A stretch of 64,000 nucleotides of DNA, from IMG/VR virus record IMGVR_UViG_3300013772_000003, positions 1 to 64,000 of that record; one strand, written 5' to 3'. The notes under the pieces are model-generated. The model worked only from the letters and a program-made list of their open reading frames with translations, searched no databases and was not told the origin of the DNA. Positions within the stretch are counted from its first letter, which is position 1. Each line of letters starts with the position of its first letter. The position numbers and the translations under genes were made by a program. Below, piece after piece: positions 12,784 to 62,831 of this stretch. Source of the stretch: a virus.

Positions 12784-12807
12784 TTTATTGTTGGTTTTTG
12801 TTGGTTA

Positions 12808-14601
12808 CTAATCAAGGTACTCAATTTTATATCCTTTTGCCCGCAAAGCGCGGATTTCTTTCTCGCTCATATATTCCCCCTCATCATGTTGTCCACCCAT
12901 TTTCATGTTGCCCCGCGATTGTACCGGAGTATATTGATTGGGACGAAACGCTCCGCTATTACTTTCATAGTCGCCCCTATTCGCATTACCTGCTTGATTA
13001 ACTGAAAACTGGTTATCAGCATTTGTACGTTGCTTTAATAACTGTTGATTAGCAAAAGTATTCTGCGAATTTAATCCCGCTGTCAGGAAACTCATACCTC
13101 CTATAATTCCTTCCGCAGCTAATTGTCCGTTAAATCCTCGCTTCTGTCTTTGCTCGGGTTTCGCATTATTTAATTGCTGCGAAGAAACGCCGGAAGTAAT
13201 CGGATATGGATTATCTGTCTGCCCATTCATCATAGTTTGGTTTCCCGCCACTCCCGCACCTTCCGGAGTAGGTTCATTAGCGAAACTTCTTTGTTGTATC
13301 TGATTAGAAAGAAATCCAAAGGCACCTGATTGATTGTCAATTCTTAGTCCGCTGTCAGGAACGTAATCGTTATTGACTTCATTTCCTTCCCCCGCAGTCC
13401 CATCCAAATGCCCCATTCCCTGCATCCATTCTTTTGACATCACCTGTGTTCCTTGTTGTGCATACTGCTTTGGTTGCCCACCATACTTAGCCATTGCTTC
13501 TTGATGTAAACTTTGAAGGTTGTTTGCTTCCTCCATTGCAAGAGCAAAATGTGCATTGTTTGACAAGTAGCCCTTGAACGCATTGTTTCTGTTATTCAGG
13601 AAATCTTCTTGTGTTACTCCTTGAGGTGAACTTGATTTAGTTTGTCCGCCGGCTTTCATTACGTCTTTATGTGCGCTTTTGATAAGTGCTTTTAGAAACT
13701 CGCCGCCTCCTTGAAAAATATCTCCACCAAACTGATGCGTAGATGTGGGTGTGGGTGCAACTGATGCTGGCGGTGTTCCCCAAGTATCCCAATTACTTGG
13801 AGCATATTTCTTTTGAAGAGTAGCGCCATGCACCTTCTCATCATAGGGTACCATATCTTTTACAGAAGGAGCGCCTTCTGCGGGCATCTTTGTTGAATCT
13901 ATGACATATCTTTTATTTCCATAGGTAACGGGAAGGTACCCCGTAGGCTTCGCAGGCTGTTGTTCCCCGGGTTTAAGGGACTCTGCTTGATAACGAACAG
14001 TTGGTGTAGGATACCTCATTTGAGAGGTCTGACTGCCTACCCACTGATCGACCTGTACATTAGGATCTGATAATTTATGGTACTGTTGAACAGCTTTGAT
14101 AGTCTCCGGTGTTACCTTATTTTGAGGAAACTTACGTGTATAATCACTATCATTAAACTCCTTCAACATTTGGTCAGTATATGCCTGCTTTCCTTCAGGG
14201 GTGTTCATCTTTGGGTCGTTCTTCATCCCTTTGCTTTGCACAAATCCTTGGAAAGCATTCCATCCTCCGACATTAGCACCTTTAGGTATTTGGGTAGGAT
14301 CTTGATTAAAACGAACTTTCTTAGTAAGATCTACATTTGTAGTAGCTCCATATTGATTCCCTGAGTCAGCAGGAGAAGTTCCTTGTACATTCAAACCCTG
14401 TTGTGCAAACTGATAACCTCCACCATACTGAAAAAACGGATTATCGAAGTTGTTTTCATAATCTCCTTCTACAATATCTCCTCCAAACTGCAAGTGTCTT
14501 ACTTGTGGATAAGCATCGAAAAAAGAATTTTCATCAGGAAACTTCTTGTAGAATTCCTTCTCTGATTTTACTCCTGCTATACGTAAAAATTCCGCTTTCA
14601 T
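12808..14601 (-). CDS. Virion cargo protein with repeated x-x-GG motifs
   Basis: 597 aa, low-complexity Q/G/N-rich; QFGG, QYGG, QFGG, QGGG, KAGG, KYGG, KMGG. Confidence 0.6.
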   Translation of the reverse strand: MKAEFLRIAGVKSEKEFYKKFPDENSFFDAYPQVRHLQFGGDIVEGDYENNFDNPFFQYGGGYQFAQQGLNVQGTSPADSGNQYGATTNVDLTKKVRFNQDPTQIPKGANVGGWNAFQGFVQSKGMKNDPKMNTPEGKQAYTDQMLKEFNDSDYTRKFPQNKVTPETIKAVQQYHKLSDPNVQVDQWVGSQTSQMRYPTPTVRYQAESLKPGEQQPAKPTGYLPVTYGNKRYVIDSTKMPAEGAPSVKDMVPYDEKVHGATLQKKYAPSNWDTWGTPPASVAPTPTSTHQFGGDIFQGGGEFLKALIKSAHKDVMKAGGQTKSSSPQGVTQEDFLNNRNNAFKGYLSNNAHFALAMEEANNLQSLHQEAMAKYGGQPKQYAQQGTQVMSKEWMQGMGHLDGTAGEGNEVNNDYVPDSGLRIDNQSGAFGFLSNQIQQRSFANEPTPEGAGVAGNQTMMNGQTDNPYPITSGVSSQQLNNAKPEQRQKRGFNGQLAAEGIIGGMSFLTAGLNSQNTFANQQLLKQRTNADNQFSVNQAGNANRGDYESNSGAFRPNQYTPVQSRGNMKMGGQHDEGEYMSEKEIRALRAKGYKIEYLD

Positions 14602-15315
14602 CTATACTGGTATTTTAAAATTATCAAAACTTACGCAGGTGCCTTCCTCAAGTTCTTCCCGGTACTTTAGATACACTTTCAAATCTGCCTGCGCCTTAAT
14701 GTACTCAGGAAACGAAAGAGCCTCCTTAGACGGATAACCAAGTGCATATAATTCGCAACGCTCCTCTAACGCCTCCAAAGGAAAAAACTCATAATTAGCG
14801 TTTTTTATCATTACACAAGTTACTATATCTTTTTCAACTTTTCTTATAAAAAGTTCAGCGCCTCCCTTCTTACTATACCCAAGAACAAAGCCCCGGGAAG
14901 GACGCACTCTTTCAAATCGTCCCACCTCAAACAAAATTTTTATCTCCGCGCCATCTTTACCGGGAGTCTCTCCTTCTGTTAAACACTTTCTCACCAAATA
15001 TGTTCCGTGCGTTCTCTTTGTGTACTTCGCTACTACATGGTCGTAACAATGCTTTCTCATGTTTTCAAAACCCCCTTCCTGCTCTGTTTTTAAAGATTTC
15101 TCTAAAAGGAGTTGTTGTTCCCTCGTTTCCTTATAAAGTCTTTCAAAAGTTTCTTTAAGAAAATCTGTGTTCTCTATGCTCTCTATAACTCCCGCTTTTG
15201 CTTGCTCCAACGTGTGCCCTCCACCAAACATCTGAGTCCCTACTGTGAAAACAACACCGTAATAAACCCCGCCATCCTCTGCGCCTAACTTTTCTTCTGT
15301 TATTTTTACTTCCAT
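14602..15315 (-). CDS. Hypothetical protein with HicB-like N-terminal segment
   Basis: 237 aa; EDGGVYYG...GGGHTLEQAKAGVIESI resembles the HicB-type RNase H-like fold; weak. Confidence 0.45.
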   Translation of the reverse strand: MEVKITEEKLGAEDGGVYYGVVFTVGTQMFGGGHTLEQAKAGVIESIENTDFLKETFERLYKETREQQLLLEKSLKTEQEGGFENMRKHCYDHVVAKYTKRTHGTYLVRKCLTEGETPGKDGAEIKILFEVGRFERVRPSRGFVLGYSKKGGAELFIRKVEKDIVTCVMIKNANYEFFPLEALEERCELYALGYPSKEALSFPEYIKAQADLKVYLKYREELEEGTCVSFDNFKIPV

Positions 15316-15366
15316 ATTTATTTATTTTACCACTTTCTACGGGACTAATCTAAATAGGTTACAAAG

Positions 15367-18177: not shown

Positions 18178-18214
18178 CTTATTTTTATTTGTTGGTTTCT
18201 ACAAATGTAGTAAA

Positions 18215-25743: not shown

Positions 25744-25755
25744 ATTTTTCTCTTC

Positions 25756-25835
25756 TTAAACAAAACCCCCGAGCAAAACGCTCAGGGCTCTGCTATTAAC
25801 TCAAAAGCAAAACCAACAGATGCTCGAGCAATATT
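25756..25835 (-). ncRNA. Candidate antisense sRNA 'B': hairpin with CUGUUGGUUU loop followed by intrinsic terminator
   Basis: UAUUG-CUC-GAGCA[UCUGUUGGUUU]UGCUU-UU-GAG-U-UAAUA, then CCCUGAGC[GUUUU]GCUCGGGG-GUUUUGUUU; loop complementary to AAACCAACA upstream of many genes. Confidence 0.65.
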
Positions 25836-27059
25836 TTAATAACAAGCACCATTAAAAGTCACTGTTCCGGTTGCTCCTTCTGACTCAGCCCTCACCACCG
25901 ACCCCGTAACAGCACAAACTGTTGTACTTGACGGCGATCCGTAGGAAAACAACTGTACCGTAGTCACAGCTCCGTTACAAGCAGTGTACCTAAAGGTCAC
26001 CTTTCCTTCAACATCCCCTTCTGTAGAGGTCAAAGTAGTGCTCTGACAATTGCATAAACAATTTCCTGTGTCTTGAGCTATTGTATAATCTGAGGGTGCC
26101 GGGGGAACACCTGCTGTACAAAAATCAACAGTTTTTCCCGGTTGTAACAAACTTACGGGATTCCCCACACTTCCTCCTGCGGGATACCCTTGCCCTGTAC
26201 AACTGGTAACTACGAAGGCAGAACAAGTCCCCAAAACAGCAGTTGCTGTCGCAGTAGTTCCTGACGCTGGAGGAACAACTGTTACTAAAGGGGCTGTGGT
26301 ATATCCTGTACCCGCATTATCAAGTATAATTTCAATCACGGTTCCATAGTCAGCTACAACATTAAAGGTAGCATCCGTAGTGTTTCCCCCCATAAAAGCG
26401 GGATCAGGTTTTAGAGTGTCTCCCGTATTATATCCAACACCCTGAGCAGTTATAGTCCCCAAAACCACGGCACCTGTATTATCAACAGTAAACGTACCTT
26501 GACCTCCGGAACCTGAACCAGAAATAACTAAAAGAGGCACCTCCGTGAATGTTTGCGATACGTTCCCATTATAGCCGGAACCATTGCTTGTAAAGGTAAT
26601 GCCTGTTGTTAAAATAAATCCTGTACCTACCACGCCATGCGCAAGCGCTGTTACCCCCGAAGGAGGTGCTGCTACCATTACGGTGGGATTTGTTCCTACT
26701 GTATACCCACTACCTTCGTTGTCAACTGTAATAGAAGCTAACGCAACACTGTTACAAGTAGCTAAATACCTTTTGCAGGAAGGAGATGGTACAAACGGTG
26801 TGCTAAAATAAACACGCCCGTCAGTAGAACTTACGTCTTCACAACAAGCTTGAGCATACCCGTCAAATTCAACTGTAGGGCAGCTTTCGTTGTCTAAACA
26901 AGGAATGGCTATAGGCACAGAACAAAGTGTGCCGCCGCCGAGACAAGTTGTGTCAACACAGGTATATCCCCCTGAATTATTCAGTCGATAGCAAACTCTG
27001 TGGCAGCCTGTATAGTCTGTCTTAAAAGTTACGGTTATTGTTGCTGGTACACACGCCAT
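25836..27059 (-). CDS. Cys/Gly/Thr-rich structural protein with repeated G(S/T/V)GY beta-modules
   Basis: Likely start ATG 27059 (MACVPAT), not 27134; EGSGYT, NGSGYN, QGVGYN, AGTGYT repeats. Confidence 0.65.
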   Translation of the reverse strand: MACVPATITVTFKTDYTGCHRVCYRLNNSGGYTCVDTTCLGGGTLCSVPIAIPCLDNESCPTVEFDGYAQACCEDVSSTDGRVYFSTPFVPSPSCKRYLATCNSVALASITVDNEGSGYTVGTNPTVMVAAPPSGVTALAHGVVGTGFILTTGITFTSNGSGYNGNVSQTFTEVPLLVISGSGSGGQGTFTVDNTGAVVLGTITAQGVGYNTGDTLKPDPAFMGGNTTDATFNVVADYGTVIEIILDNAGTGYTTAPLVTVVPPASGTTATATAVLGTCSAFVVTSCTGQGYPAGGSVGNPVSLLQPGKTVDFCTAGVPPAPSDYTIAQDTGNCLCNCQSTTLTSTEGDVEGKVTFRYTACNGAVTTVQLFSYGSPSSTTVCAVTGSVVRAESEGATGTVTFNGACY

Positions 27060-27646: not shown

Positions 27647-29149
27647 TTAAGGTATACTGATTAATGCTGTTATTGCACTCGGAGGAGGACATGGATTAGG
27701 CAACGTTGTTACCACCGTAAGCGGACACGTTTGTACTCCATTATTTCCTACAACAAAAATTCTTATCTTATATGTAGTTCCTTTTGTTAAGCCACTGAAT
27801 GTACCCGATACCGTGGTTGGATTTAATTCAGGGAAAGTTTGACTTTGTAATAAAGTATTTCCTGTACTATCGTAAAGAGCTACCGTATATGTTTTAGTTC
27901 CCGAAATGTGTGGGAAAGAGAAGAACATTGAGGTTAAGCCTGCTATGAACGTTGTTGCAGGGCAATTCAAAGTACAAACAAAGATGTATTCCAAGCAAGA
28001 CTCACAAACTGTACCCAAAGTATTATCCTTAAGACATATATCTGAGGTAATGGTGAGATTATCCCCTACGTTCAACGGAGTTCCTCCTATACTAACTGTA
28101 AACCCTCCCGGATTATTCATGGTTGCCACAAGAGGAATTGTCACATTTATGTTATGTCCGGACTGATCCGCAATATTAAACACAGTTCCTGCAATACTAC
28201 ACTCCACTAAACCTTGGGGAATGGAACCGGTAAAGAACAAAATAAGATTATTAACCGTAGGCATTGTCGCCTGCACTTGAATAGATACCCCTTGACAAGG
28301 AGTAGCACAACAATTCAATTGAATGTTTGTAACAGCGCTGCGTAAATCAGAAACAGTCAACCAAAGGTTTGTAATAGCATCTCCCACATTATTAACAACT
28401 GTCCTCCATCCCGGAATAGAACCCATTGTTCCTCCTTGTGTCCCTAATGCAGGAAGCGTATTGAGTCCTGTAGGCTGTGTTGCAATTCCGTTAAATAAAT
28501 CAGAAGGTTGTCCCGTAGCGGCGCGTAGTTCACAGAACTGTTTTTCCAATGCCTGTAAAACAATATCAATGGTTGTTGGAGCTGCTCCTAAAACACAAAC
28601 AGGGGTAATGCTTGGAAGTGCGGGAGGAGTAGTTAAAATAGTAGCAACCGTCTTCTCAACAACACCTAAGCGTGCTCCTTGATTTTGCAAACTCTGTACA
28701 GTAAATCCTTGTTGGGATAAAAGCTCACAAAAAGTATTTCCAATAAGCGTTACATAGTCTGTAAGTTGGGAGGTAATAACCATATCCAACGTCTTGGGAT
28801 CTTGGTACTGAAAACAGGACGCTAAATTTACAACACAATCAGGACACCCTTTAGTTCCTCCTGTTGGACTTTCAATTCCTTCTAACGCACAAATCCTATC
28901 AATAAGTAATTGTAATAATTGTGTAAAATCTTCGGGAGCACAACGAGTAAGGTCAAAACACGATAAATCATACGAAGTTACGTCGAGCTCAGAAATTACG
29001 ATACAAAGTTTGCAAGCCAAATCATGCACATTCTTTGTAAGACAATCCCCTTTTTTGATTCCTACACAAGGAATAGACTCTCCCTCATAAATTACGCATT
29101 GCGAACTTTGGGATATGCAATTACTATCGTTGTAATTTGTAGGCTTCAT
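27647..29149 (-). CDS. Cys-rich structural protein with FN3-like C-terminus
   Basis: 500 aa; shares CV(I/V)YxG..I...GI..G..L motif with neighbour; FSGLTKGTTYKIRI. Confidence 0.7.
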   Translation of the reverse strand: MKPTNYNDSNCISQSSQCVIYEGESIPCVGIKKGDCLTKNVHDLACKLCIVISELDVTSYDLSCFDLTRCAPEDFTQLLQLLIDRICALEGIESPTGGTKGCPDCVVNLASCFQYQDPKTLDMVITSQLTDYVTLIGNTFCELLSQQGFTVQSLQNQGARLGVVEKTVATILTTPPALPSITPVCVLGAAPTTIDIVLQALEKQFCELRAATGQPSDLFNGIATQPTGLNTLPALGTQGGTMGSIPGWRTVVNNVGDAITNLWLTVSDLRSAVTNIQLNCCATPCQGVSIQVQATMPTVNNLILFFTGSIPQGLVECSIAGTVFNIADQSGHNINVTIPLVATMNNPGGFTVSIGGTPLNVGDNLTITSDICLKDNTLGTVCESCLEYIFVCTLNCPATTFIAGLTSMFFSFPHISGTKTYTVALYDSTGNTLLQSQTFPELNPTTVSGTFSGLTKGTTYKIRIFVVGNNGVQTCPLTVVTTLPNPCPPPSAITALISIP

Positions 29150-29170
29150 TTGTGGAGTATTGTTGCAAAG

Positions 29171-31294
29171 TTATAATTTTCTTGGAGTAGTTATCCCGGA
29201 TGTTGAAGGATTGTTAAAAGTTATTACCGCTCCTTCCATCACCACCACATCTTCACAAGGAGTTACTAACGTTATTGTTGCTGTTATGTCTGTTGGTGTA
29301 GGACACGCTATTGGTGTTGGAGGTGTAGGAGGAGTTAGTACAGGACACGGTGTACAGCAAGTTATTGGCGGACACGTCCTACAAAGCGCCGGATCGTATA
29401 TCGCACGTAAATCAAGCAACTCTTTTTTAATTATCCACTTCTGTAAATCCTCTCCGCAGCACGTTGTTATTCCGTAACGACGTTTCTTCATCTTGTTGTA
29501 AACCTGTTCTGCAAATTCACAATTCACTTTCTCAGTGTATTCAGGAGAACATCCCGGCGTGTTATACCCCGGTTTTACTTTACGTTGTCTCAGTAATTCG
29601 GGTGCAGGGCAAACTAAAGGAGGATTACAAAGAGCGCAAGTACCAAAAGAAGTCATTACAACCACTGGTTCAGACCCGCGACAAGTGCCGGAAATGTTTA
29701 CTGTCCAGCACTGATTTACACAACCTTTAATTTGAATTACTTGTCCAACATATTGAGATAAGTCTGTATCTGTAATTATTGGATTTTCCTTTTCAGCGCA
29801 ATCACTAAGAACGTAGCATTTCTTAGCGCAAGTAGTACAATCAATAAACGATTTTGGATTAGTAATAGGTGTAGATTGCGTACATCCAGTAGCCGCACTG
29901 ACTTGCCAACATATTCCGGGGTATCCGTCAATCTGAACAGCTTGTCCTATATACGCCGTTAAAACGGTGTTTGTTGTTACTGTTTGCTTTTCGTCCGCAC
30001 AATTCGTAAGCTTGAAGCAGGGTAAGCAGGAAATGCAGGTATCCGAGGTACTTACATACGTTACCGGTACAGAGCCCGTACAATTTGGCGCACTCATCAC
30101 AGACCAACACCCTGCATAAGTTCCGGACAAGTTCACGGTCATACCTATGCTTGTAGATAAATTTGTACTTGTAATAATAATTGTGCCGGTAATACAATTG
30201 GTAAGCTTAAAACAAGGTGCGCACGTTTGGCAATTATCGAACGCTACAACATTAGATACCGTAATTGTAGTAGTACAGTCAGTAGCAGTGGTAACGGACC
30301 AACATCCCGGAAACTCTGCAATAGTTATAGCTTGTCCTGTACCTACGTAGGCAGATAAATCGGTACTAACAACGTGGGTTAAACTTTTATCAGCGCAATT
30401 GGTGATTAAAAAACAACAGTTGTATGGAATGCTTTCTATAATAGAACACATTAATTCCTGTCCGCAAGTATTTAACGCGTATCCAGAAGGGCAAGAATAT
30501 CCACTAAATTGCCCCGTTTGAAAAGTCTGCCCTATTTTATTTGTTGTTGTAAAAATAGTAACCGCACTTAGTTGAGCAGGAGTTGTGATCAAAGCAAGTT
30601 GAGAAGGAGTTGCATGATACACCTCCGCAGCAAATGAAGCAATCCGACCCTGATTAAGCCCCTCTAATGTAAGTATATTAATTCCTGCCTTTAGCGTTAT
30701 AGGAAATACATGCCAATAATTGAAGTTAAACGTAGGTGCGCCTACTCCGGGGACAGAAAAATCAAGCGCAACAATTAACTGCCCGTTAATGCTAAAACGC
30801 GTTTCGTTGTCCGCAGCCATCCCTATACAATAGGTGCCGGCAACAGGAACGTCTACACACGCAGAAAACCCGATCCATTCATTAATCGGACACTGATTTA
30901 AAGCATTAACTGTTCCTGTGGTGGTACAATCATATTCTGTTAAAGGCTGAGTAGTCCATATACCTGCATTATTAAGTCTTCCGTCTACTACAACAGCGTC
31001 TCCCCACAAAGGGTTTACAATATTGTTAGTCACTGCAAGCGTAACGGTTCCAGAAGCGTCTTGCAATGTAGTAGGAGCCGAGGCAACAGGACGAATAGGA
31101 AAGATTAATCCCGATATATCCTGATAAAAATTTGCACCATTCTGACCATAAACACTACTCTTATTACCAGTTCCAACATGGTATGTTATCCCGTTATTTG
31201 TAGCAGCAACACTTGTCGTCTTTATACAATTCAACCCACTCTGGTCAATTACATAACCTTTAGGACACGGACAAGTATTTAGAGAAGTAGCCAA
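29171..31294 (-). CDS. Cys-rich structural protein with PA14-like domain and four ~66-aa Cys repeats
   Basis: 707 aa, TTG start, about 48 Cys by hand count; VPVAGTYCIGMAADNETRFSING is PA14-like. Confidence 0.7.
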   Translation of the reverse strand: MATSLNTCPCPKGYVIDQSGLNCIKTTSVAATNNGITYHVGTGNKSSVYGQNGANFYQDISGLIFPIRPVASAPTTLQDASGTVTLAVTNNIVNPLWGDAVVVDGRLNNAGIWTTQPLTEYDCTTTGTVNALNQCPINEWIGFSACVDVPVAGTYCIGMAADNETRFSINGQLIVALDFSVPGVGAPTFNFNYWHVFPITLKAGINILTLEGLNQGRIASFAAEVYHATPSQLALITTPAQLSAVTIFTTTNKIGQTFQTGQFSGYSCPSGYALNTCGQELMCSIIESIPYNCCFLITNCADKSLTHVVSTDLSAYVGTGQAITIAEFPGCWSVTTATDCTTTITVSNVVAFDNCQTCAPCFKLTNCITGTIIITSTNLSTSIGMTVNLSGTYAGCWSVMSAPNCTGSVPVTYVSTSDTCISCLPCFKLTNCADEKQTVTTNTVLTAYIGQAVQIDGYPGICWQVSAATGCTQSTPITNPKSFIDCTTCAKKCYVLSDCAEKENPIITDTDLSQYVGQVIQIKGCVNQCWTVNISGTCRGSEPVVVMTSFGTCALCNPPLVCPAPELLRQRKVKPGYNTPGCSPEYTEKVNCEFAEQVYNKMKKRRYGITTCCGEDLQKWIIKKELLDLRAIYDPALCRTCPPITCCTPCPVLTPPTPPTPIACPTPTDITATITLVTPCEDVVVMEGAVITFNNPSTSGITTPRKL
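29620..30416 (-). repeat. Four tandem ~66-aa repeats C(F/Y)xL(T/S)xC...LxxxxG...CWxV...C...CxxC
   Basis: Visible in translation: CFLITNC, CFKLTNC, CFKLTNC, CYVLSDC units, each with CW(S/Q/T)V and terminal CxxC. Confidence 0.85.
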
Positions 31295-31496: not shown

Positions 31497-31528
31497 TGTA
31501 TGTTGATTTTTGTTGGTTTAATTTTATT

Positions 31529-32737: not shown

Positions 32738-32754
32738 CTCGGTGGAGTATAAAT

Positions 32755-34154: not shown

Positions 34155-34248
34155 GTGGAGTGTTTTTAGTTTAGTTTTTCAAGTGACGTTCACTAATGCA
34201 GCAAAGATATATCAACAACTCTGATTCAATCAAAAAAGTTTTCAACAC

Positions 34249-34959
34249 CTAATTATTTTCATCTACTGTTTTTTGGTCACGTTGTATTTGAAGTAATGAT
34301 TCGATGTCCCCAGCGAGTTTCTTAGCGGTATCTACAATCATAAGTTCTATCATATCATCGTTAAACTCACTTGTTACGTCCACCGTTGGGGTAAGTCCCG
34401 TATAAGAATCTTTCACCCCTGCAATCTGAATATGTCGAGGCTGTTTGTAGTATGTGAGCGTAACGTCCTGTACATCGAACTTATTATCGGTATATATTTT
34501 AAACTTGTTGCTACCAAATGTTGCAAATGTTTCCGCCCATTCAAAAGAAGGTTGCTTGTTTACATCTCTCAGGAGAATATCTGGGTTTGCCTCTTCTCCA
34601 ATGTAAATTACTAATCTGCGCGGTTCAGGACAACATTCATTAATTGCGTTTGCGGAAATTCTTTTGAAGCGCAAGTAATCTGCGGGAAGTACTGCTGCTG
34701 TTTCAAAAAACTCCTGACGATTGTTCATAAGTAGTTTCGAAGTCGTAACCAAAAGCATCTGAAAATCATCAATACGTGATGTAGACTCCTCATCGCCCTC
34801 ACGCTTTATATTTAGACCGTGCAAATTTCGTCGGGTAAACAACGGCTGTACTGTATTGTAAGCATCCACTATTGTCCATGCAGGCAAATTAGTAAAATCA
34901 TTTGAATCTAATTTATTCAGCGCTACTTTAATTTTTAAAAGAATGGCGGCGTTTAACAT
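34249..34959 (-). CDS. Head-tail ring/adaptor protein (crAss gene-74-like)
   Basis: 236 aa; LNKLDSND, GDEESTSRIDD, LPADYLRF, LTYYKQP motifs. Confidence 0.8.
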   Translation of the reverse strand: MLNAAILLKIKVALNKLDSNDFTNLPAWTIVDAYNTVQPLFTRRNLHGLNIKREGDEESTSRIDDFQMLLVTTSKLLMNNRQEFFETAAVLPADYLRFKRISANAINECCPEPRRLVIYIGEEANPDILLRDVNKQPSFEWAETFATFGSNKFKIYTDNKFDVQDVTLTYYKQPRHIQIAGVKDSYTGLTPTVDVTSEFNDDMIELMIVDTAKKLAGDIESLLQIQRDQKTVDENN

Positions 34960-35000
34960 GTTATGGAGTTTTAGTATACAAAGATAAACACAAATTTACA

Positions 35001-35056: not shown

Positions 35057-35179
35057 TTATTTCTTTACTTTAGCAGGAGCGTTAGTGCTTTTTTTGTTTA
35101 CACCTTTAACTACTTTAGCTTTAGGATTACCACTTGACATACCACCAGTTGTTCCTGATTTTGCTTTTTTTGCTTTCAT
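35057..35179 (-). CDS. Small Lys-rich basic protein (40 aa; possible DNA-condensing core peptide)
   Basis: MKAKKAKSGTTGGMSSGNPKAKVVKGVNKKSTNAPAKVKK; below ORF-track cutoff; AACCAAC motif upstream, terminator downstream. Confidence 0.7.
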   Translation of the reverse strand: MKAKKAKSGTTGGMSSGNPKAKVVKGVNKKSTNAPAKVKK

Positions 35180-35209
35180 TTTGTTTTTGTTTTTATTTGT
35201 TGGTTTAAA

Positions 35210-36235
35210 TTATTTCTGCCACTCGAGTTCAACTGATTTTTGTACCGACTCTAACACTCTCTCGTTCATAGGACTGTTCAAGTATGCTACCACCTCTGCA
35301 ACGTTAGCACCGCATCTTGTGTGAGAATCTGCGTGCCAAATACCATCCGGTTTTGCTATCAGGAAATTGTATATACATGCGTCCTTAACGATTGCAATAA
35401 GCTTCAGGTCCTCGATTTTCATGTCGATAGTATCCAAAAACTTCTTAGCTGCATACTTCATGGTTTTCTCTTCGCCGCGACCATTGATATACGCATCCGC
35501 ATCTTCGTATAATGAATCAAGCGGTGTAGAAGGTTTGTATCCTACACAGTCAATTAATATATTCTTCAATACAAAACGCAATTTCTCCGCGTCGTTTTCA
35601 AACAACTTCTGCATCTGCTCAATCGCTTTGTTTTTAAGCTTGCTGAGAGTAACTTTATCAGAAACTGTTTTTTCAAAACGATCTAAGTACCATTTGAATT
35701 TGTTTGTTTTGCGAGCAACCTCATAAGAAGGAGCAACTGAATCATATCCGCCGGCTTCAAGCACACGAAGTTTAATCAGATCGTATGGGTTGTTTGCCGT
35801 GTCCAGCATGACCGCTTCGTTGGTCAGACGTAATTCGTTTTCGCGCTTACCCCAAAAAGTTTTATTCTGAGGATGCACCGTCTTTACCTTCGCCCAAAAC
35901 TCAGCAGGGTCTAACTCCGCATCTTTTGGAGACATTGGGTTTGAACCAATCATCTGTTCAAGATAAATTACGTCCTTGCGAATTTCTTTTATTTTCGCTT
36001 TACGTTCTTTTTCCTCCAAGCGCATTACTGCAGGAGAAAATTCGTCTAAGCCAGTGATGTACTTTAAACCACTTCCTGAATCAGAGCAAGTAATTTGCTC
36101 TCCGTGGGTGGTTCCTTCGTGAATAACAAGTCCATTTTTAGATAACCCAAGATCTCCCGGGTCTTCTACGATAAAAGGACGAATCGCTAATTTAGGTAAT
36201 GTTTTTGGTTTGGGTGCTTCTGCTACTGTACTCAT
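35210..36235 (-). CDS. Conserved head-associated protein (crAss gene-75-like)
   Basis: Likely start ATG 36235 (MSTVAEAP); YITGLDEFSP motif; synteny between MCP and ring protein. Confidence 0.7.
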   Translation of the reverse strand: MSTVAEAPKPKTLPKLAIRPFIVEDPGDLGLSKNGLVIHEGTTHGEQITCSDSGSGLKYITGLDEFSPAVMRLEEKERKAKIKEIRKDVIYLEQMIGSNPMSPKDAELDPAEFWAKVKTVHPQNKTFWGKRENELRLTNEAVMLDTANNPYDLIKLRVLEAGGYDSVAPSYEVARKTNKFKWYLDRFEKTVSDKVTLSKLKNKAIEQMQKLFENDAEKLRFVLKNILIDCVGYKPSTPLDSLYEDADAYINGRGEEKTMKYAAKKFLDTIDMKIEDLKLIAIVKDACIYNFLIAKPDGIWHADSHTRCGANVAEVVAYLNSPMNERVLESVQKSVELEWQK

Positions 36236-36257
36236 ATTGTTGGTTATTTGTTGGTTT

Positions 36258-37318: not shown

Positions 37319-37370
37319 CTATTATAGTTTTATAATGACGTTGGTTTTTTAAATTTTTTATACTTCTTTT

Positions 37371-40116: not shown

Positions 40117-40123
40117 GTGGAGT
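40117..40123 (-). promoter_or_regulatory. ACTCCAC translation-initiation-region motif upstream of MCP (representative)
   Basis: Also at 29152, 32742, 34155, 44892, 58867; ACTCCAT at 34963 and overlapping ATG 51296. Confidence 0.8.
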
Positions 40124-41475: not shown

Positions 41476-41491
41476 GTTGGTTTAGTTGGTT
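41476..41491 (-). promoter_or_regulatory. AACCAAC translation-initiation-region motif, tandem pair (representative)
   Basis: Also at 12790, 12800, 18191, 31512, 35199, 36239, 36250, 37340, 51300, 53810, 57120, 61666. Confidence 0.8.
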
Positions 41492-44888: not shown

Positions 44889-44912
44889 GGTGTGGAGTAT
44901 TAGATATTGTTA

Positions 44913-50287: not shown

Positions 50288-50711
50288 CTACTGTTCCTTT
50301 CTCTTTTAATTGCTTCAAGTATTCAGGATAATGTTCCTCCCGCATCTCGTTCTGTTTTTTTCTTATGTCCGCTTTTTTCTTATGTTCCTGTTGGAATACA
50401 TTATAAATCGCCTCTACTCTGTTAAACTCCTCCCTGTACTTATTACATACTGCCTGTTTTTTTACGCTGCCTCCGTGATTCTGAGTAGCCTTAATCCGCT
50501 TTCGCAAAGACAATAATCTCTTTTCCAACCTCCAATGCTTCAGGTAGAATGTTCCAAGCCCGGGCATCTCAAGCTTCGTCCTCTCCAACTTCGCCATTTC
50601 CTTCCGGTAATATTTCCAATACCAAAGAACCAACACCTTAACCTCGGACTCAGGCAGCGACAGTTGCTCTGCTGTCTGTTTTACTATTTTTGTCCAGTGC
50701 GTCGGCTTCAA
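50178..50711 (-). CDS. IHF/HU-like DNA-binding protein
   Basis: AEQLSLPESEV...LEMPGLGTFYLK HU-type signature; start uncertain. Confidence 0.7.
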   Translation of the reverse strand: MKPTHWTKIVKQTAEQLSLPESEVKVLVLWYWKYYRKEMAKLERTKLEMPGLGTFYLKHWRLEKRLLSLRKRIKATQNHGGSVKKQAVCNKYREEFNRVEAIYNVFQQEHKKKADIRKKQNEMREEHYPEYLKQLKEKGTVDEKIIKYLEEQMENSRRDSVHLVSEQLCGDDSRKED

Positions 50712-51296: not shown

Positions 51297-51384
51297 GGAG
51301 TTGGTTTTATGTCCCAAAAATAATAAACAATGTGTTATTGTTAGAAAAAAGTTTTTAACAACGTGTTTTTATGCAGAAAATAAA

Positions 51385-53808: not shown

Positions 53809-53830
53809 AGTTGGTTTTTTACAAATATAA

Positions 53831-54538: not shown

Positions 54539-56749
54539 TTATTGTGATTGAAACCAAGCATTAGGTGTTGAACAGTAAACGAAATTAGCTGCCGAATTTG
54601 TTCCGGTTGTTAAAATAGTCCCGTTAATAGTTGCAGCCCCAGTACCCGATTGTAAAGTTATTGCGGTAATTATTTGTGAAATTGCTATTCCAAACACCTG
54701 CCCGTTTACCGGATTGGGAGGAAAAGTAATTGTAAGTGCCGCTAATGTACCGGCAGGGTTACACACTAATTGTGATACCTGCTGCGTTGCTGTTACCGTA
54801 GCAGATGTTACGGGCGTAGTATATTGAACGCTGTTAGCGGCTATCGGAAATCTACCTACCGTAGTGTTTGGAGTAATATAAAAATTTGTACCATCCGGCT
54901 CTATCGTTAATGCTTCTGCGACCGTAGTCAAAGTCCCTGCCGTAAATTTTAAAGGAGCCGTACCTGCGCTTGCTGTTCCTGCTGCTAAATGAAGTAAGGC
55001 GGTCGGTGCAGTTGTAGCCCCTCCTAAATAAGTACTACCTGTATGCTGAACATTACCTACTATACCCAATCCCCACGCCCTTGTAATTGTAGCATTAGTA
55101 CCTGCTGTGGGTGCGCCATTAATGTATTGGGTAAAAGCATCTGATATTGTACTTGCTGCAACAAAAGCATGAGGACGCGCTTTTATTAAGAAGTCGTTGT
55201 TTTGTGTTATAGCCCCCGTGTTATGTGTTTGAGTACTTGAAAAATCAAAAAACACAGCATTATTATCAGTAGATGCTGTACTACCAGTATTTAAACCTGG
55301 TTTTACTTTAAATGTAGGAACTGCACCAGTTGTTTGAGCAACAGTTGATAAATCTAACCAACCAAGACCCATGGTCATTGTTGAATTATTACTATTTATT
55401 CTCCAAACAAAATTACTTGCTGCCCTCATATAATAAGCACCACCTGAATAGAAAATATAATCAGTTGTTTGAGCGCCCGGATATAAATAAGACCCATAAT
55501 TAATGTTATGACTTGCATCTGTTTTTAACCCTGTGCTTGTTGTTATTTGATCCGCATCATTATAATAAGGTATTTGATATTGTGCTGATGTTCCTGTTTT
55601 ACCTACTAACGTAGTAGCCACAGGTGGTAAAGTTGTTATAACAGATGCTTGTTGTGCAAAGGTTGTATTAAATGCCCCTGTAGTAGCTAAATTACCCGCA
55701 AGTGTAAGTGTATTACTTCCGTTATTAACCCCCGTACCTCCGTAAGTAGGACTAATAAGAGTACCGTTCCAAGTTCCTGTAGTAATTACCCCTGTATTTG
55801 CAGTTACTACTAATCCGTTAAGGCTTGTAACTCCGGTAAGAGCCCCTAAAGTCAAGGTGATTGCCGGTGTTGTAGAGGCATTTGCGACCGATCCGCTTAC
55901 TCCCTGATTAGTTACTACGGACACAGTAGTCACACTACCAGACCCCGCAGCAGCCCAACTTGTATTCGTCCCATCTGTGGTCAAGAACAGTCCACCAAAA
56001 GTAGCCTGTGAAGGAGCTAACGCATTAAAAGCATTGTTTGCTGTGGTTTGCCCGGTTCCTCCGTTTGTAATGCCTAAAGTGCCGGTAATAGTAGAGGTAC
56101 TTAATGCTACCGTAAACCCGGCGCCCGTAGCTCCCGAAGTTAACGTGCCGACCCCTACCAACGACGGCAAAGAAGTTACCGCCGTAGTAACTAATGTTCC
56201 TGTTGTTGGTAATGTAATGTTGGTTGTACCGGTTGTGGTAAGAGTAACTCCGAATTCTCCTGAGACAAGAACGGGATTCACAGCTATAGTCTCTATTATA
56301 TTATTATATGTAAGGTTACTCAGGTAAATCCCTTTTATCTCTACGGAATAAATTAATGCTACAAACGCATCAGTATACACTCCGGAAGTGGTCCACGCAC
56401 CGGTAAGTGTATTAAGAGTTGCTGTAACTATCGTGCCTCCCGCTGTAGTAGGGCTTTGAAACGTCGGCTTATTGCTGCCATCAATCTTCGAAAGAACGCA
56501 ATTACCCGCGAGACCAAACTCATCCGCGTTAATGGTTGCTTGGGCTGGGAGGGTAAGGGTGCCGCTTGCTCCTGACACAACCTCATAATATGTAATCTTG
56601 TACTCATTGTTTTTTAGTGTTGTGACGTCTACGCTTACTGCGTTAACATCTGTCATAGTAGCAAAAACATTAGCAATGCTGGGACTATTAGCGCCATCTA
56701 ATGCCTGTACAATCTCTGTTGAGAATATCTGCCTTAATTCTACTCCCAT
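54539..56749 (-). CDS. Tail fibre protein
   Basis: 736 aa T/G/A-rich; GGTG repeats, PTALLHLAAGTASAGTAPLKF fibre motif. Confidence 0.85.
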   Translation of the reverse strand: MGVELRQIFSTEIVQALDGANSPSIANVFATMTDVNAVSVDVTTLKNNEYKITYYEVVSGASGTLTLPAQATINADEFGLAGNCVLSKIDGSNKPTFQSPTTAGGTIVTATLNTLTGAWTTSGVYTDAFVALIYSVEIKGIYLSNLTYNNIIETIAVNPVLVSGEFGVTLTTTGTTNITLPTTGTLVTTAVTSLPSLVGVGTLTSGATGAGFTVALSTSTITGTLGITNGGTGQTTANNAFNALAPSQATFGGLFLTTDGTNTSWAAAGSGSVTTVSVVTNQGVSGSVANASTTPAITLTLGALTGVTSLNGLVVTANTGVITTGTWNGTLISPTYGGTGVNNGSNTLTLAGNLATTGAFNTTFAQQASVITTLPPVATTLVGKTGTSAQYQIPYYNDADQITTSTGLKTDASHNINYGSYLYPGAQTTDYIFYSGGAYYMRAASNFVWRINSNNSTMTMGLGWLDLSTVAQTTGAVPTFKVKPGLNTGSTASTDNNAVFFDFSSTQTHNTGAITQNNDFLIKARPHAFVAASTISDAFTQYINGAPTAGTNATITRAWGLGIVGNVQHTGSTYLGGATTAPTALLHLAAGTASAGTAPLKFTAGTLTTVAEALTIEPDGTNFYITPNTTVGRFPIAANSVQYTTPVTSATVTATQQVSQLVCNPAGTLAALTITFPPNPVNGQVFGIAISQIITAITLQSGTGAATINGTILTTGTNSAANFVYCSTPNAWFQSQ

Positions 56750-57115: not shown

Positions 57116-57124
57116 ACTTGTTGG

Positions 57125-57364
57125 TTATATATTGGGATAATGAGCTGTTATGTATGCCTGTGCAGCAGCTTGCAATTTTGTATCAATCTCAACTTGTGAA
57201 TCAGTTTTTAAAAAGTTGAAGGTGCTTAACTGTTTAGAATAAAAGTCAGAATAAGCATTTCCAACTATATTCGAAATTACCACTATCTGCCAATCGCGAC
57301 TTACTCCATCTTTGTTGTCTACAGGAGCACCAACTACATTTGCATCTTTTAATTCGTAGGTCAT
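57125..57364 (-). CDS. Tail-fibre partner protein
   Basis: 79 aa; DNKDG...QAAAQAYITAHYPN. Confidence 0.65.
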   Translation of the reverse strand: MTYELKDANVVGAPVDNKDGVSRDWQIVVISNIVGNAYSDFYSKQLSTFNFLKTDSQVEIDTKLQAAAQAYITAHYPNI

Positions 57365-58500: not shown

Positions 58501-58506
58501 GACGTA

Positions 58507-58860
58507 TTAAACTACGGTATCAATTCTAACAGATCCTGCTGTAACAGTATAAGGCATTCCCAAAAGGGTTTTACCTGACGCAGAGTCAAACCCATAAAAA
58601 GTAGAAGCATTGGCTGTAACGCCATTTATGGTTCCGGTAAAACCGGTAGAAGTTGTAAATCCTATGGAAGTAGCGCCGGCAGCAACTGAACCGGAAGCGG
58701 CAGTACTTATAGAGGTAACGGTTTGTGTCCCTCCTGCACCAGCTCCTGCCGCAATTATAATAAGTTGATCCTGAATAACCTTCTGCATCTGCAGCATTGA
58801 CAACTGCCACTTAAAGTTGTTGCCTTTACTGCCGTCTGTGTGATCGTGACCTACGCCCAT
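58507..58860 (-). CDS. Small structural protein, first gene of late region
   Basis: 117 aa; DGSKGNNFKWQ N-terminus, G/T/S-rich; ACTCCAC motif and TATCTTTA promoter variant upstream. Confidence 0.65.
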   Translation of the reverse strand: MGVGHDHTDGSKGNNFKWQLSMLQMQKVIQDQLIIIAAGAGAGGTQTVTSISTAASGSVAAGATSIGFTTSTGFTGTINGVTANASTFYGFDSASGKTLLGMPYTVTAGSVRIDTVV

Positions 58861-58994
58861 GATGTTGTGGAGTTAATGAGTTTGGTGTAAAGATAGTGTG
58901 GATTCAGGAAAATTTCGATACTCGCGGGCTTAGTGTAGCCAAAAACTTATTAACAATGTGTTTTTTGTAACAAAGTACTCCGTAAATTTGCCTC

Positions 58995-59125
58995 AGTTGA
59001 GGATAGCTTTTTAGAAGGGGCTGTACTCCACAACCAAAATATTAAAAATAGTCGCAGTCACACTGCACAAAATATCCCTTAACCAAAGCCCCTTCTGTTT
59101 ACTCGGTTGGGGATTTTTGTTTTTA
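58995..59125 (+). promoter_or_regulatory. Structured 5' leader / attenuator downstream of TAAATTTG promoter (58983-58990)
   Basis: AGAAGGGGCT (59013-59022) complementary to AGCCCCTTCT (59087-59096), which lies in the loop of a terminator-like stem 59067-59084/59105-59120. Confidence 0.65.
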
Positions 59126-59129
59126 GGAT

Positions 59130-59843: not shown

Positions 59844-59951
59844 GCATGTTCTTTTTTGATAACATATTATGGTAACTCATAAGGTTATGTGCTTAGTTAT
59901 AATTTTTTATATATTAATAGCAGTAGTATACGCACCATACAGCACAGAGAG

Positions 59952-60587: not shown

Positions 60588-60618
60588 ACCTAATACCAGA
60601 ATAACTACCACTTGCCGG

Positions 60619-60795
60619 TTACTCCACAACATGTCCTGAAGATTCCATAACGGGAAACTCTTGCTCCTTTTCAGGATCATTAAATCTGTGGTATACCCAT
60701 ACCTTACTGGTGTAAGTTTGCTTGTTCTTCTTTGCGTGCACAACACGAAGAAATGCTGCTACTTTTTGTAGCGTTGTTTTTTGTTCGGCTTCCAT
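60619..60795 (-). CDS. Small hypothetical protein (58 aa)
   Basis: MEAEQKTTLQKVAAFLRVVHAKKNKQTYTSKVWVYHRFNDPEKEQEFPVMESSGHVVE; below ORF-track cutoff. Confidence 0.5.
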   Translation of the reverse strand: MEAEQKTTLQKVAAFLRVVHAKKNKQTYTSKVWVYHRFNDPEKEQEFPVMESSGHVVE

Positions 60796-60952
60796 ACCTT
60801 TTGTTTTTAGTGAACATTAAAGGTATCTTAAGCACAAAGAGGTTGGTGGTAAAATTCGATGAAATGGGAGTTTTTATAGCCAAATAAAGCAAATAAAAAG
60901 TAGAAATATCTACTTCCTGAAAAAAACACAGGATCAGCTTGGAAAGAGCCGG

Positions 60953-61339
60953 TTACTTGCGCAAAATTCTGTCATAAAACAACGAGAACACTACATTCCA
61001 CAAGCAACCTGATACACAGAACATAAGTACAAAACAGTACCAAGGAAGTTCTATTGTCGCAGTGTGGGCGATGTATCCTACTAAGGCAATCGTTGCACAA
61101 AGACAAACAATCATAATACTTTTGAAGCAATGCCATGCATCTGTGAAGGCTACAGGAATACTCCGTTGCGGTTTAGTAGGATCGCTGTCTACATATTTAT
61201 TCTTCCAACTAATACTTGGGTCCCAAAAAGTAGCGTTCTTATTCCAGAAAACAGAAGTAGTGTAATGATGTACCAAAGTGTCCATAACAGCATTGGATGC
61301 GGCAGCAATCATAAATAGGAGTATTGAAAGTATGATCAT
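60953..61339 (-). CDS. Membrane protein
   Basis: Three TM helices; AVMD...FWDP..SWKNKY...FTDAWH.FK motif. Confidence 0.75.
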   Translation of the reverse strand: MIILSILLFMIAAASNAVMDTLVHHYTTSVFWNKNATFWDPSISWKNKYVDSDPTKPQRSIPVAFTDAWHCFKSIMIVCLCATIALVGYIAHTATIELPWYCFVLMFCVSGCLWNVVFSLFYDRILRK

Positions 61340-61596
61340 CTTGTCCGCCCGGCTTTATCATCCTGATAATTCTGATACGTCTTGAATAGGTTTACCCAAA
61401 ACATCAGGTTAAGTATTCCGGTGAGTACCCAAAACGAAGTTAACTCCATCGCGCCGGAGTGCACCTGCACTATTCCTGTTATCTGAGAGATTATATAAAA
61501 CAGGTAAATAAATATTTCTACTACTGTGTAAGGGGCGCCTTTTCCAAGTATCCATTGGATAAACGTTTTTTTATTTGCGTTGTCGATTGGTTCCAT
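61336..61596 (-). CDS. Two-TM membrane protein
   Basis: ATG 61596 (MEPIDN) after TACCTTTG at 61601-61608; alternative start 61665. Confidence 0.65.
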   Translation of the reverse strand: MEPIDNANKKTFIQWILGKGAPYTVVEIFIYLFYIISQITGIVQVHSGAMELTSFWVLTGILNLMFWVNLFKTYQNYQDDKAGRTR

Positions 61597-62000
61597 ATTG
61601 CAAAGGTAGGAAAATATTGTACAGCAAAAAGCCGGTACTATTATTCCCGAATCAAAAAATCCCATGTTGGTTATGTGTTGGTATAAGGCAAAGATAGAAA
61701 AATTTTTTTATATAATTTTTTTTGGTACTTTAAAACCTATGTACAGGGTCGTGTTTAGCTTGTACCCCCCTACTCACCGGCACCCCAAACCAAATGGGCA
61801 CCCTACCCCCACCTCTTAAATAAACTCAATCCTATAGTATAGGGAATTATCCAAAGAGACTCCTTTTCTTGTCCAGAGAATATTCTTTATTTGAATAGCT
61901 TGTTCTCTTCTTATGATATGTTATCTACTTCAGGATATTCTTTGTTGTTCTTATCCTTGCCTCGCTCCTTGATTGTATATTAGTGATTACCCCGCGTTTA

Positions 62001-62058
62001 GGGGACATTAAGCCCCTCGATTACGCAGATTTGGTATACCAAAGGGTTTATTGTCTCC
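62001..62058 (+). other. Long hairpin with internal 14-bp palindrome at start of early region
   Basis: GGGGACATTAAGCCC (62001-62015) pairs with GGGTTTATTGTCTCC (62044-62058); TTTGGTATACCAAA at 62030-62043. Confidence 0.65.
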
Positions 62059-62106
62059 GCTCGGCACAGCAATCGCATATTGCCGTTCATTATCAATCAC
62101 TTACAA

Positions 62107-62118
62107 TCTCACCCCAAA
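62107..62118 (+). promoter_or_regulatory. TCTCACCCC(A/T)AA early-gene motif (representative)
   Basis: Also at 62508, 63335, 63867; 25-36 nt upstream of ATG. Confidence 0.8.
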
Positions 62119-62146
62119 TCATTATAAACCCTTAATCTATCTTCAC

Positions 62147-62278
62147 ATGGAAACAATCGTATCACCTGCCGCATATAATGCTGCTGTAAAAGCCTTAAAA
62201 AAGGCACAAAACAAATTGATGAAAGCTCGTGTAGAACATGAGATAGCTTTGATTAACTACACTAAACAAGTAAGCTAA
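62147..62278 (+). CDS. Small early protein (43 aa)
   Basis: ATG 62147 (METIVSP) downstream of TCTCACCCC motif. Confidence 0.6.
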   Translation: METIVSPAAYNAAVKALKKAQNKLMKARVEHEIALINYTKQVS

Positions 62279-62279
62279 C

Positions 62280-62519
62280 ATGGAAAACCTATTCGAAACA
62301 TTAGGGGAGTGCTTACGCCCCGAACTTAGCGCTGAACTACATAAACGTCAGACTAAGTGTACTATCATTCAGGATATTGACCGCGCTTGGTTGCTTGCTA
62401 AAGCTAAACACCTCAGCCCCAAACAATTCGATTACCTTTATGAACTTGACATAGATCAACTCTATGAAGTACAGAATAACATTCGCAATCTTTGTCCTCT
62501 CATTCAATCTCACCCCTAA
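62280..62519 (+). CDS. Early hypothetical protein
   Basis: 79 aa, coupled to previous gene. Confidence 0.7.
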   Translation: MENLFETLGECLRPELSAELHKRQTKCTIIQDIDRAWLLAKAKHLSPKQFDYLYELDIDQLYEVQNNIRNLCPLIQSHP

Positions 62520-62540
62520 CCCCTTAAAACCTCATCACAA

Positions 62541-62747
62541 ATGATCATATCTATTATCATGGAGGGCGCACTTAAATTAGTGCAGCTAATCCGGTACAGC
62601 AACAACCAAAGAGTTGCGAGAATCTTTAACCCAAAGGACAGCCGTGTTCCTGAAAGAGTGTTAGACCTTGATAATCAGGGGAGAGCAATCGACGATGAAA
62701 CCGGTAAAACCTATAGGTTTAATATCAGGAATTGCGCAGAAGCGTAA
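62541..62747 (+). CDS. Early hypothetical protein
   Basis: 68 aa downstream of TCTCACCCC motif. Confidence 0.7.
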   Translation: MIISIIMEGALKLVQLIRYSNNQRVARIFNPKDSRVPERVLDLDNQGRAIDDETGKTYRFNIRNCAEA

Positions 62748-62752
62748 ATCAC

Positions 62753-62831
62753 AATGATCGAGCCAGTGGAGTGGCTTAGTTGTTAGAGTACAGCGTTCCA
62801 AGCTTCGGTTTGGGCGCTGTTTCTTTTTATT
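62753..62831 (+). ncRNA. Candidate antisense sRNA 'A': hairpin with GUGGAG loop followed by cUUCGg intrinsic terminator
   Basis: AAUGAU-C-GAGCCA[GUGGAG]UGGCUU-A-GUUGUU, then ACAGCGUUCCAAGC[UUCG]GUUUGGGCGCUGU-UUCUUUUU; loop complementary to ACUCCAC upstream of structural genes. Confidence 0.65.

Follow-up and report, generated by a model that had tools for sequence, protein, structure and literature searches.

We describe a hairpin–terminator module in the intergenic DNA of a crAss-like phage whose loop is the reverse complement of AACCAAC, the heptamer most often found just upstream of the phage's start codons. The window analysed is the first 64 kb of a linear phage contig of 74,772 bp (IMG/VR record IMGVR_UViG_3300013772_000003; CheckV completeness estimate, 62%), and the module, hereafter element 2, occupies positions 25760-25833 on its minus strand. 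Judged by its conservation among relatives, element 2 is a genuine RNA motif shared by a clade of crAss-like phages from the environment, and AACCAAC together with its complement GUUGGUU forms a well-conserved, undescribed candidate RNA regulator. We regard it as an evenly balanced question whether the loop, carried at a messenger RNA (mRNA) 3′ end or on a 3′ fragment, pairs with the AACCAAC leaders and tunes translation initiation; of the steps we infer (accumulation of the RNA, its pairing and its effect), loop–leader pairing is the best supported. A sequence-only reading of the same window had proposed that two loop-displaying RNAs, element 2 and a plus-strand counterpart (element 1), each address their own set of late genes through a start-codon heptamer, an interpretation that, taken as a whole, is partly supported by the results below.

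The element 2 hairpin and its conservation

Both elements had been described as intergenic, set right after a stop codon and built of a hairpin and an intrinsic terminator, and the folds confirmed this: the interval around element 2 (25755-25836, minus strand) folds at −27.8 kcal/mol (z = −3.3) and that around element 1 (62747-62831, plus strand) at −31.7 kcal/mol (z = −4.4), each more stable than its shuffles. The first hairpin of element 2 (25794-25833, minus strand; about 13 pairs with two bulges; 35.3 bits against our covariance model R1) begins 3 nucleotides (nt) past the stop codon of a virion gene of 407 amino acids (aa; 25836-27059). Its loop, UCUGUUGGUUU (25810-25820, minus strand), is unpaired in minimum-energy folds and has the core GUUGGUU, the reverse complement of AACCAAC; the intrinsic terminator that follows (25760-25793, minus strand) consists of a GC-rich stem and then GGGGGUUUUGUUU, with a linker, U-R-A-C-A-R, on its 5′ side. 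The claim of exact reverse complementarity between loop and start-region word (GUGGAG for ACTCCAC, UCUGUUGGUUU for AACCAAC) thus holds for both elements.

Conservation was assessed at loci found by an IMG/VR search with a ring protein 2 alignment (p223-linked), which returned 80 loci with 63 distinct intergenic regions. The hairpin module is present in 58 of these 63, with 44 hairpins lying directly at the site and 14 more that mostly lie one gene further upstream, have stems missed by the model or carry a variant AUUGGUU loop (model R1 misses hairpins with divergent stems, which were recovered by a pattern search and by looking one gene upstream). In one subgroup (L207, L213, L215, L224, L235, L240 and others), the upstream distance of the hairpin–terminator module from the ring-protein gene is greater by one gene, seemingly through the insertion of an additional gene 3′ of the module. 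The syntenic site is defined as the spacer between the 407-aa gene's orthologue and a gene pair ending in ring protein 2 (CrAss_Ring_2). At this site, a complete relative of 122 kb (G001) has the hairpin GUCAUAGU-UUAGUUGGUUU-ACUGUGAC and a terminator, its loop being identical to that of this phage and its stem different, and five other relatives (G002, G004, G005, G007 and G008) likewise have a same-loop hairpin with another stem and a terminator. Such same-loop hairpins persist even though the neighbouring proteins share only 27-48% identity. Two further apparent loop matches in G001 (12522-12684 and 96838-97026) were discarded as artefacts of alternative local hairpins.

The stems are as diverse as the loop is constant. 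Examples include GUCACG/CGUGAC, GUCAGG/CCUGGUC, GCUGUGA/UCGCAGC, GUCCGUUU/AAACGGA and AGCGG/CCGCU, compared with GCUCGAGCA/UGCUUUUGAG in this phage. Among the 44 distinct hairpin sequences, both sides change in 7 of the 8 stem pairs, 88.9% of paired cells can pair (about 32% when the partner is slid), and the covariation score of 0.485 (0.254 in shuffles) was reached by none of 500 shuffles, although the alignment behind these pair counts was fitted to model R1 and somewhat favours it, a point to be held against our interpretation. Of the 44 hairpins, 43-44 have the unvarying loop core GUUGGU and 40-43 keep the U residues that flank it, and the matching word is kept at orthologous genes (below), so the conservation in relatives on which the sequence-only reading depended was borne out for element 2. 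A single-stranded linker, U-(G/A)-A-C-A-(A/G), also separates hairpin from terminator in nearly all homologues (alignment columns 44-49), where it may serve as another functional site or mark a point of cleavage.

The motif does not correspond to a catalogued RNA. Rfam 15 gave no match at gathering thresholds anywhere in the window and none near element 2 up to E = 1, which excludes known Rfam families for both elements, and full-text literature searches returned neither a description of the motif nor, in searchable papers, any regulatory RNA of crAss-like phages. One resemblance concerns the loop itself: AGUUGGUUA is a common D-loop sequence, and GUUGGUU also occurs in the D-arm of transfer RNAs (tRNAs) encoded by relatives (near 28025 in G001 and near 30555 in G009), so the loop might mimic a D-loop and be read by a tRNA-binding factor or a processing enzyme. 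We rejected such mimicry because the bases that flank the core are U, not A (the positions equivalent to A14 and A21 are U in at least 40 of the 44 hairpins); the stems have 6-8 bp rather than 4, and ARAGORN found no tRNA in the window. On these grounds the D-loop explanation appears most improbable. Also set aside was a possible start signal on the opposite strand at the loop, AAACCAACAG-ATG (plus strand, 25810), which opens only an 11-codon open reading frame (ORF) and is therefore read as chance.

A more substantial alternative is that element 2 acts only in cis, as a stabiliser, termination aid, processing signal or protein site at the 3′ end of its transcript, with the AACCAAC words serving as self-sufficient translation enhancers and the complementarity between the two having no function. 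The hairpin directly follows a stop codon and precedes a terminator, as structures in 3′ untranslated regions (UTRs) do, and the conserved linker hints at a protein or RNase site.

Leader words and their correspondence to the loop

Genes were called anew, and the 20 nt upstream of each start (−20 to −1) were compared across the 89 starts of the 74.8-kb genome. AACCAAC is the top start-region 7-mer, found at 11 of the 89 starts; ACTCCAC ranks third and is the next independent 7-mer (the second overlaps AACCAAC), preceding six starts, with one ACTCCAT besides. The number of about 11 genes previously given for AACCAAC therefore stands, whereas the figure of about 8 for the other heptamer falls to six plus this variant, and the two gene sets, said to be mostly non-overlapping, indeed barely overlap under the new gene calls. 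Both words are enriched in the window as a whole, where AACCAAC occurs 31 times (11.5 expected), AAACCAACA 8 times (1.3 expected) and ACTCCAC 17 times (5.4 expected, a count as high being seen in 0 of 100 shuffles). Gene A (after the portal gene), gene B (after the capsid gene) and a number of small genes have AACCAAC leaders, in many cases with the word doubled in tandem.

Start regions of orthologues were then compared in 15 genomes, comprising this phage and its relatives. AACCAAC precedes genes A and B in all nine genomes whose hairpin has the GUUGGUU loop (G000, G001, G002, G004, G005, G008, G066, G079 and G082; hereafter G-loop genomes), usually twice, despite protein identities of 32-41% and a spacer that cannot otherwise be aligned. 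In seven of these (G000, G001, G002, G005, G066, G079 and G082), it is among the top start-region 7-mers, with fewer start regions carrying it in G004 (4) and G008 (2). The leader consensus AAACCAACAA is the reverse complement of the loop consensus, and A makes up 91% of the leader logo at −1, 72% at −2, 68% at +1 and 59% at +2, relative to a background of 44%. In lineages with an AUUGGUU loop (G009 and G106), genes A and B are preceded by AACCAAU or AACCAAA and no start region has AACCAAC, and in four hairpin-less genomes (G011, G014, G020 and G021) no AACCAAC lies within 20 nt of any start. Two of these hairpin-less genomes (G020 near 55625 and G021 near 72807) have, at a conserved place, a weak hairpin with the loop UCUGUUGGUACUAUU and no clear terminator, perhaps what is left of the module or else a diverged form of it.

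These comparisons speak against the cis-only explanation. The loop core is exactly complementary to the top leader 7-mer in most G-loop genomes, an agreement expected by chance at about 1 × 10−3 (roughly five 7-mers per loop out of 16,384, with composition not yet allowed for), and across the genomes compared, word and loop are retained, altered or lost in concert. In favour of the cis-only explanation, the leaders are, as enhancers should be, generically G-poor and C/A-rich and often contain tandem words, loop and leader show no covariation beyond the core, and their duplex energies are unremarkable. Taking both sides together, we consider action in cis alone possible, though on the unlikely side.

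Several observations weigh against loop–leader pairing. In a tree of portal and capsid proteins, the genomes without a hairpin group as a single clade adjacent to the A-loop lineages, so that no more than one or two evolutionary events underlie the co-occurrence of loop and word. One of the hairpin-less genomes (G014) keeps AACCAACA 19 nt upstream of the gene B start. The changes of G to A in the loop and of C to U or A in the leaders are both in the direction of AT drift, and three of the four A-loop leaders have A rather than the compensating U. No covariation between loop and leader was detected at positions flanking the 7-nt core, and so the co-variation anticipated by the sequence-only reading is seen in the absence of AACCAAC leaders from AUUGGUU-loop and hairpin-less relatives and stops at the edge of the core. 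Duplexes with AACCAAC leaders reach −11 to −12.5 kcal/mol, which the best 1% of coding windows equal, and a duplex-energy ranking of all start regions, an approach that the sequence-only reading had suggested, did not single out these leaders for element 2 (the corresponding result for element 1 was more favourable; see below). In addition, the hairpins begin 2-10 nt past a stop codon, leaving no room for a promoter of their own, such that a separate small RNA (sRNA) would need processing, and the sequencing runs that contain the phage are all DNA runs from one soil study, with 0 RNA runs among them. A count of the pattern AACCAACN{0,10}ATG over 40 records was too noisy to discriminate.

The same sequence data allow a reading at the DNA level, in which AACCAAC/GTTGGTT is a double-stranded site for a phage regulator that works in either orientation and the intergenic copy is simply another site. 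The word is indeed present in both orientations, some leaders adjoin TAnnTTTG promoter boxes, and the change in G009 is alike in both orientations. However, a DNA site would have no need of the flanking inverted repeat, yet stems are kept by compensatory changes across many lineages; the inverted copy is always in a hairpin loop, on the transcribed strand and before a terminator; and the words lie 0-22 nt from starts, even within upstream coding sequence (for example, at start 73768), which fits use at the RNA level. We therefore think a DNA-binding site very unlikely.

The individual AACCAAC leader sites listed here are all on the minus strand. Two tandem copies lead gene A (41476-41491; 436 aa, directly after the portal gene, start 41469), gene B (36239-36256, as AACCAAC(A); 341 aa, 3′ of the major capsid protein (MCP) gene, start 36235) and a 147-aa gene (12790-12806; start 12783). 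Single copies lie 22 nt 5′ of the start of a 338-aa gene (37340-37346; start 37318) and in the leaders of genes of 64 aa (31512-31518; start 31496), 76 aa (18191-18197; start 18177), 78 aa (51300-51306; start 51296), 92 aa (53810-53816; start 53808, with a TAtaTTTG box just upstream) and 116 aa (57120-57126; start 57115), and another adjoins the ATG of a 109-aa gene (61666-61672; start 61665). One more (35199-35205) is about 20 nt 5′ of an unannotated small ORF (ATG near 35178). The start of this Lys/Ala-rich ORF and the word upstream of it, which reads AAACCAACA, fall within 35172-35209 (minus strand), in the spacer of 250 nt that separates the gene at 35210-36235 from that at 34249-34959. 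Genes of 54-71 aa at the position matching the 64-aa gene also carry AACCAAC in four relatives (G001, G002, G004 and G005); a protein search found no homologue of the 64-aa gene in the relatives, and their orthology is assumed from position alone. A GTTGGTT at 50628-50634 (minus strand) was dropped as a candidate, being probably within coding sequence.

These words are embedded in a more general type of leader. The frequency of G from −18 to −1 is 0.00-0.13 at nearly all positions, the genomic value being about 0.2 (the exception is a late-gene position at 0.25); A is maximal at −13 to −10, forming a TAAAA box at about −14 to −10, and C rises in the last ten bases. Shine–Dalgarno (SD) sequences, purine-rich and complementary to CCUCC at the 16S 3′ end, are not what is found: the leader words are free of G, and ACUCCAC is similar to the anti-SD rather than the SD. 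This agrees with studies of Bacteroidia ribosomes, which ignore the SD and whose initiation depends on leader sequence and low structure (PMC6847099, PMC7797042). Beyond the window, nearly all early genes have TAAAAC and then a leader rich in C and A and free of G, in which a third word, ATCACA, recurs. As (C)ATCACA(A), it stands directly 5′ of the ATG of small early genes between 62.1 and 74.7 kb (for example, at starts 62541, 65722, 68783, 71021 and 73592), and related forms, CCATCACC and ATCACATG, precede early genes of relatives (23.8-25.5 kb in G001 and near 5029 in G066). Because ATCACA-type words also precede the early genes of relatives, leader words seem to be class-specific and conserved. 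G001 itself uses several (AACCAACA, CAACTCAA, AAATCTAAGC, CCATCACC and AATCACAC). The leaders of this phage thus grade into one another as G-poor, C/A-rich words, among which three or more classes recur. AACCAAC and ACTCCAC are the commonest two, and in view of the third word and of the general C/A-rich, non-SD leader, the proposal of two discrete regulons was overstated. Both word types also meet far from any start, in the divergent spacer at 59013-59097 between the genes starting at 58860 (minus strand) and 59130 (plus strand), where a long-range stem, AGAAGGGGCU/AGCCCCUUCU, encloses on the plus strand ACTCCAC followed at once by AACCAAAA.

The phage that carries these leaders is crAss-like, as identified by its crAss tail ring protein 2 (CrAss_Ring_2, PF25702), portal (phrog_6547) and major head protein (phrog_11589). 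It is distant from characterized phages: portal identity is below 32% to the nearest cultured phages and about 60% to the best IMG/VR relatives, and megablast against GenBank phages gave no match. Searches of viral, genome and metagenome contigs and GenBank phages gave no usable relatives of the 407-aa protein or of a neighbouring 212-aa protein, the latter having no relative above 62% identity. Genes are on the minus strand from 1 to 61.7 kb, and from about 62.1 kb onwards the plus strand carries a block of small early genes that reaches the end of the contig. Between 10 and 64 kb, Bacteroidota-type −7 boxes, TAnnTTTG, occur 12-25 nt 5′ of some starts (for example, 34959, 38420, 29149, 53808 and 62867), which implies that the leaders there are very short or nearly absent and begin at the leader word. 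These boxes and the G-poor leaders fit a Bacteroidota host, a phylum presumed from these two features.

Element 1 and the ACTCCAC leaders

The second proposed pair fared less well. Element 1 comprises a hairpin (62753-62784, plus strand) with the loop GUGGAG at 62766-62771, in the 3′ part of the first early operon, and a terminator fold (62785-62824, plus strand). ACTCCAC leads the portal gene (44892-44898, minus strand, as are all sites listed here; start 44888), the major head protein gene (40117-40123; start 40114) and five other late genes, counting the ACTCCAT variant: a 500-aa gene (29152-29158; start 29149), a 185-aa gene (32742-32748; start 32737), a 447-aa gene whose ATG it adjoins (34155-34161; start 34154), a 117-aa gene (58867-58873; start 58860) and, as ACTCCAT 3′ of a TAtcTTTG box, a 236-aa virion gene (34963-34969; start 34959).

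If both hairpins were trans-acting seed RNAs, the phage would have at least two regulons, one addressed through ACTCCAC and one through AACCAAC, with one loop for each. That both loops match two top leader words speaks for this, as does the reality of the AACCAAC/GUUGGUU pair, which raises the prior for the other. The loop of element 1 pairs with 9 of the 89 start regions better than the best 1% of coding windows, a result matched by 3.5% of shuffled loops, which is suggestive, if post hoc. The element's architecture resembles a counter-transcript RNA, and it scores 35 bits against the Rfam family ctRNA_pT181, below the gathering score of 56 and with the matching letters mostly in the terminator tail.

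Comparison with relatives points the other way. ACTCCAC is found in the start regions of 0 of 14 relatives, including those of their portal genes; relatives' MCP and 447-aa orthologues instead share other phage-specific words (AATCACAC and AAAACAAAA), and no intergenic loop matching AATCACAC was found in G001. The neighbouring 68-aa early gene has its only homologue in G066, where it is followed by an unrelated structured spacer of 180 nt. Moreover, the loop, of just 6 nt, falls within a mini-ORF that may be translated, and GTGGAGT occurs 10 more times on transcribed strands. The ACTCCAC/GUGGAG pairing of the sequence-only reading is thus not supported by comparison with relatives, and a two-regulon arrangement is unlikely; for element 1 by itself, a regulatory role is likewise unlikely. 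Most probably the element simply closes the first early operon as its normal 3′ end, with terminator, and the 6-7-nt match of its loop to ACTCCAC may be due to chance. The mini-ORF (10 codons; 62752-62787, plus strand; ATG at 62755), which has AATCACA just before it, overlaps the hairpin and stops before the terminator, a layout reminiscent of leader-peptide attenuation.

A candidate 3′-end regulator and known systems

Returning to element 2, pairing of its loop with AACCAAC leaders would work as follows. The hairpin is placed directly before the terminator of a late unit that would start near the portal gene, and every transcript ending there would consequently carry the loop at its 3′ end. 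The invariant loop, UU-GUUGGUU-U, would be displayed either on the end of the full-length mRNA or on a processed 3′ fragment, the latter perhaps cut at the A/U-rich stretch 5′ of the stem, and would form a kissing interaction with single-stranded AAACCAACA(A) words 0-22 nt upstream of starts, chiefly those of genes A and B. Such pairing would most likely block the ribosome landing site and 30S binding, leading to repression or dosing late in infection, although activation is possible; gene A, gene B and several small proteins would thereby be dosed as late transcripts build up. Conserved single-stranded seeds that pair with translation initiation regions and repress them are known from Bacteroides sRNAs, for example GibS (PMC7366714). 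In the crAss-like phage phi14:2, two long intergenic regions are reported to be more strongly transcribed than most genes, beginning with the first time point sampled, which hints at abundant non-coding RNAs in this phage group (10.1101/2020.03.07.982082, where start-codon motifs are not mentioned).

A broader possibility is that several pairs of word and loop (AACCAAC/GUUGGUU and a newly evolved ACTCCAC/GUGGAG) make up an RNA-addressed translational programme in the SD-blind Bacteroidota crAss-like phages, with the hairpins possibly acting as positive adaptors; we view this extension as improbable and raise it as speculation. For the study of how Bacteroidota phages control translation on ribosomes that ignore the SD, a conserved loop with its leader word offers a concrete pair to work with. 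If the pairing is real, element 2 would be a phage-encoded, multi-target antisense regulator, borne on a 3′ end, of the phage's own gene dosage, and the leader words could be useful as expression-control parts in Bacteroidota.

Each part of this arrangement has partial counterparts. The c4 RNA of phages P1 and P7 and the CI RNA of P4 are short phage antisense RNAs whose exposed loops recognize just one or two sites, all within one immunity operon, and control lysogeny or immunity. Element 2 shares with them an exposed loop sequence complementary to sites in phage transcripts; here, in contrast, the sites are more than 10 start regions spread over about 60 kb, at structural and other genes, in a phage that is presumably lytic. 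In phage T4, the RegA protein represses many phage genes by way of a short start-region motif, and many genes would be addressed alike here, the candidate effector being an RNA complementary to the motif where RegA is a protein. Element 1, for its part, is like ctRNA_pT181 (RF00242) in having a hairpin and terminator of about 90 nt that align over the whole model, and differs in scoring below the gathering threshold and lacking a plasmid replication context; it is not a member of that family. The leaders resemble the 'Kozak-like' A-rich leaders of Bacteroidia (PMC6847099, PMC7797042) in being G-poor and unstructured, with no SD and a TAAAA-like box upstream, but also contain C-bearing words (AACCAAC, ACTCCAC and ATCACA) that are repeated between genes and conserved between phages, which goes beyond a position-specific preference for A.

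Along with the c4 and CI RNAs, the nearest in kind to element 2 are RNAs cut from, or ending with, the 3′ part of an mRNA. Trans-acting sRNAs derived from 3′ UTRs, such as CpxQ, SroC and DapZ, are established in bacteria. Element 2 is like them in lying at an mRNA 3′ end and sharing its intrinsic terminator (a layout that is the same in relatives), in its conserved, accessible putative seed (GUUGGU, in 43-44 of 44 hairpins), and in the conserved complementary sites at start regions of several mRNAs (those of genes A and B in 9 of 9 G-loop genomes). It differs in being phage-encoded and known here from sequence alone, in holding its seed in a hairpin loop rather than in a linear 5′ stretch, and in having as candidate targets genes of the same phage, which a recurring leader word sets apart. 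The 3′-UTR-derived class is also reported from Bacteroides (PMC7366714), and GibS and other sRNAs of Bacteroides thetaiotaomicron come from the presumed host phylum, which lacks SD pairing; GibS-type sRNAs pair around the start codon and repress, as proposed for element 2, whereas GibS has its own promoter and an unstructured 5′ seed that extends over 30-50 nt, and shows no sequence relation to the phage hairpin (PMC7366714).

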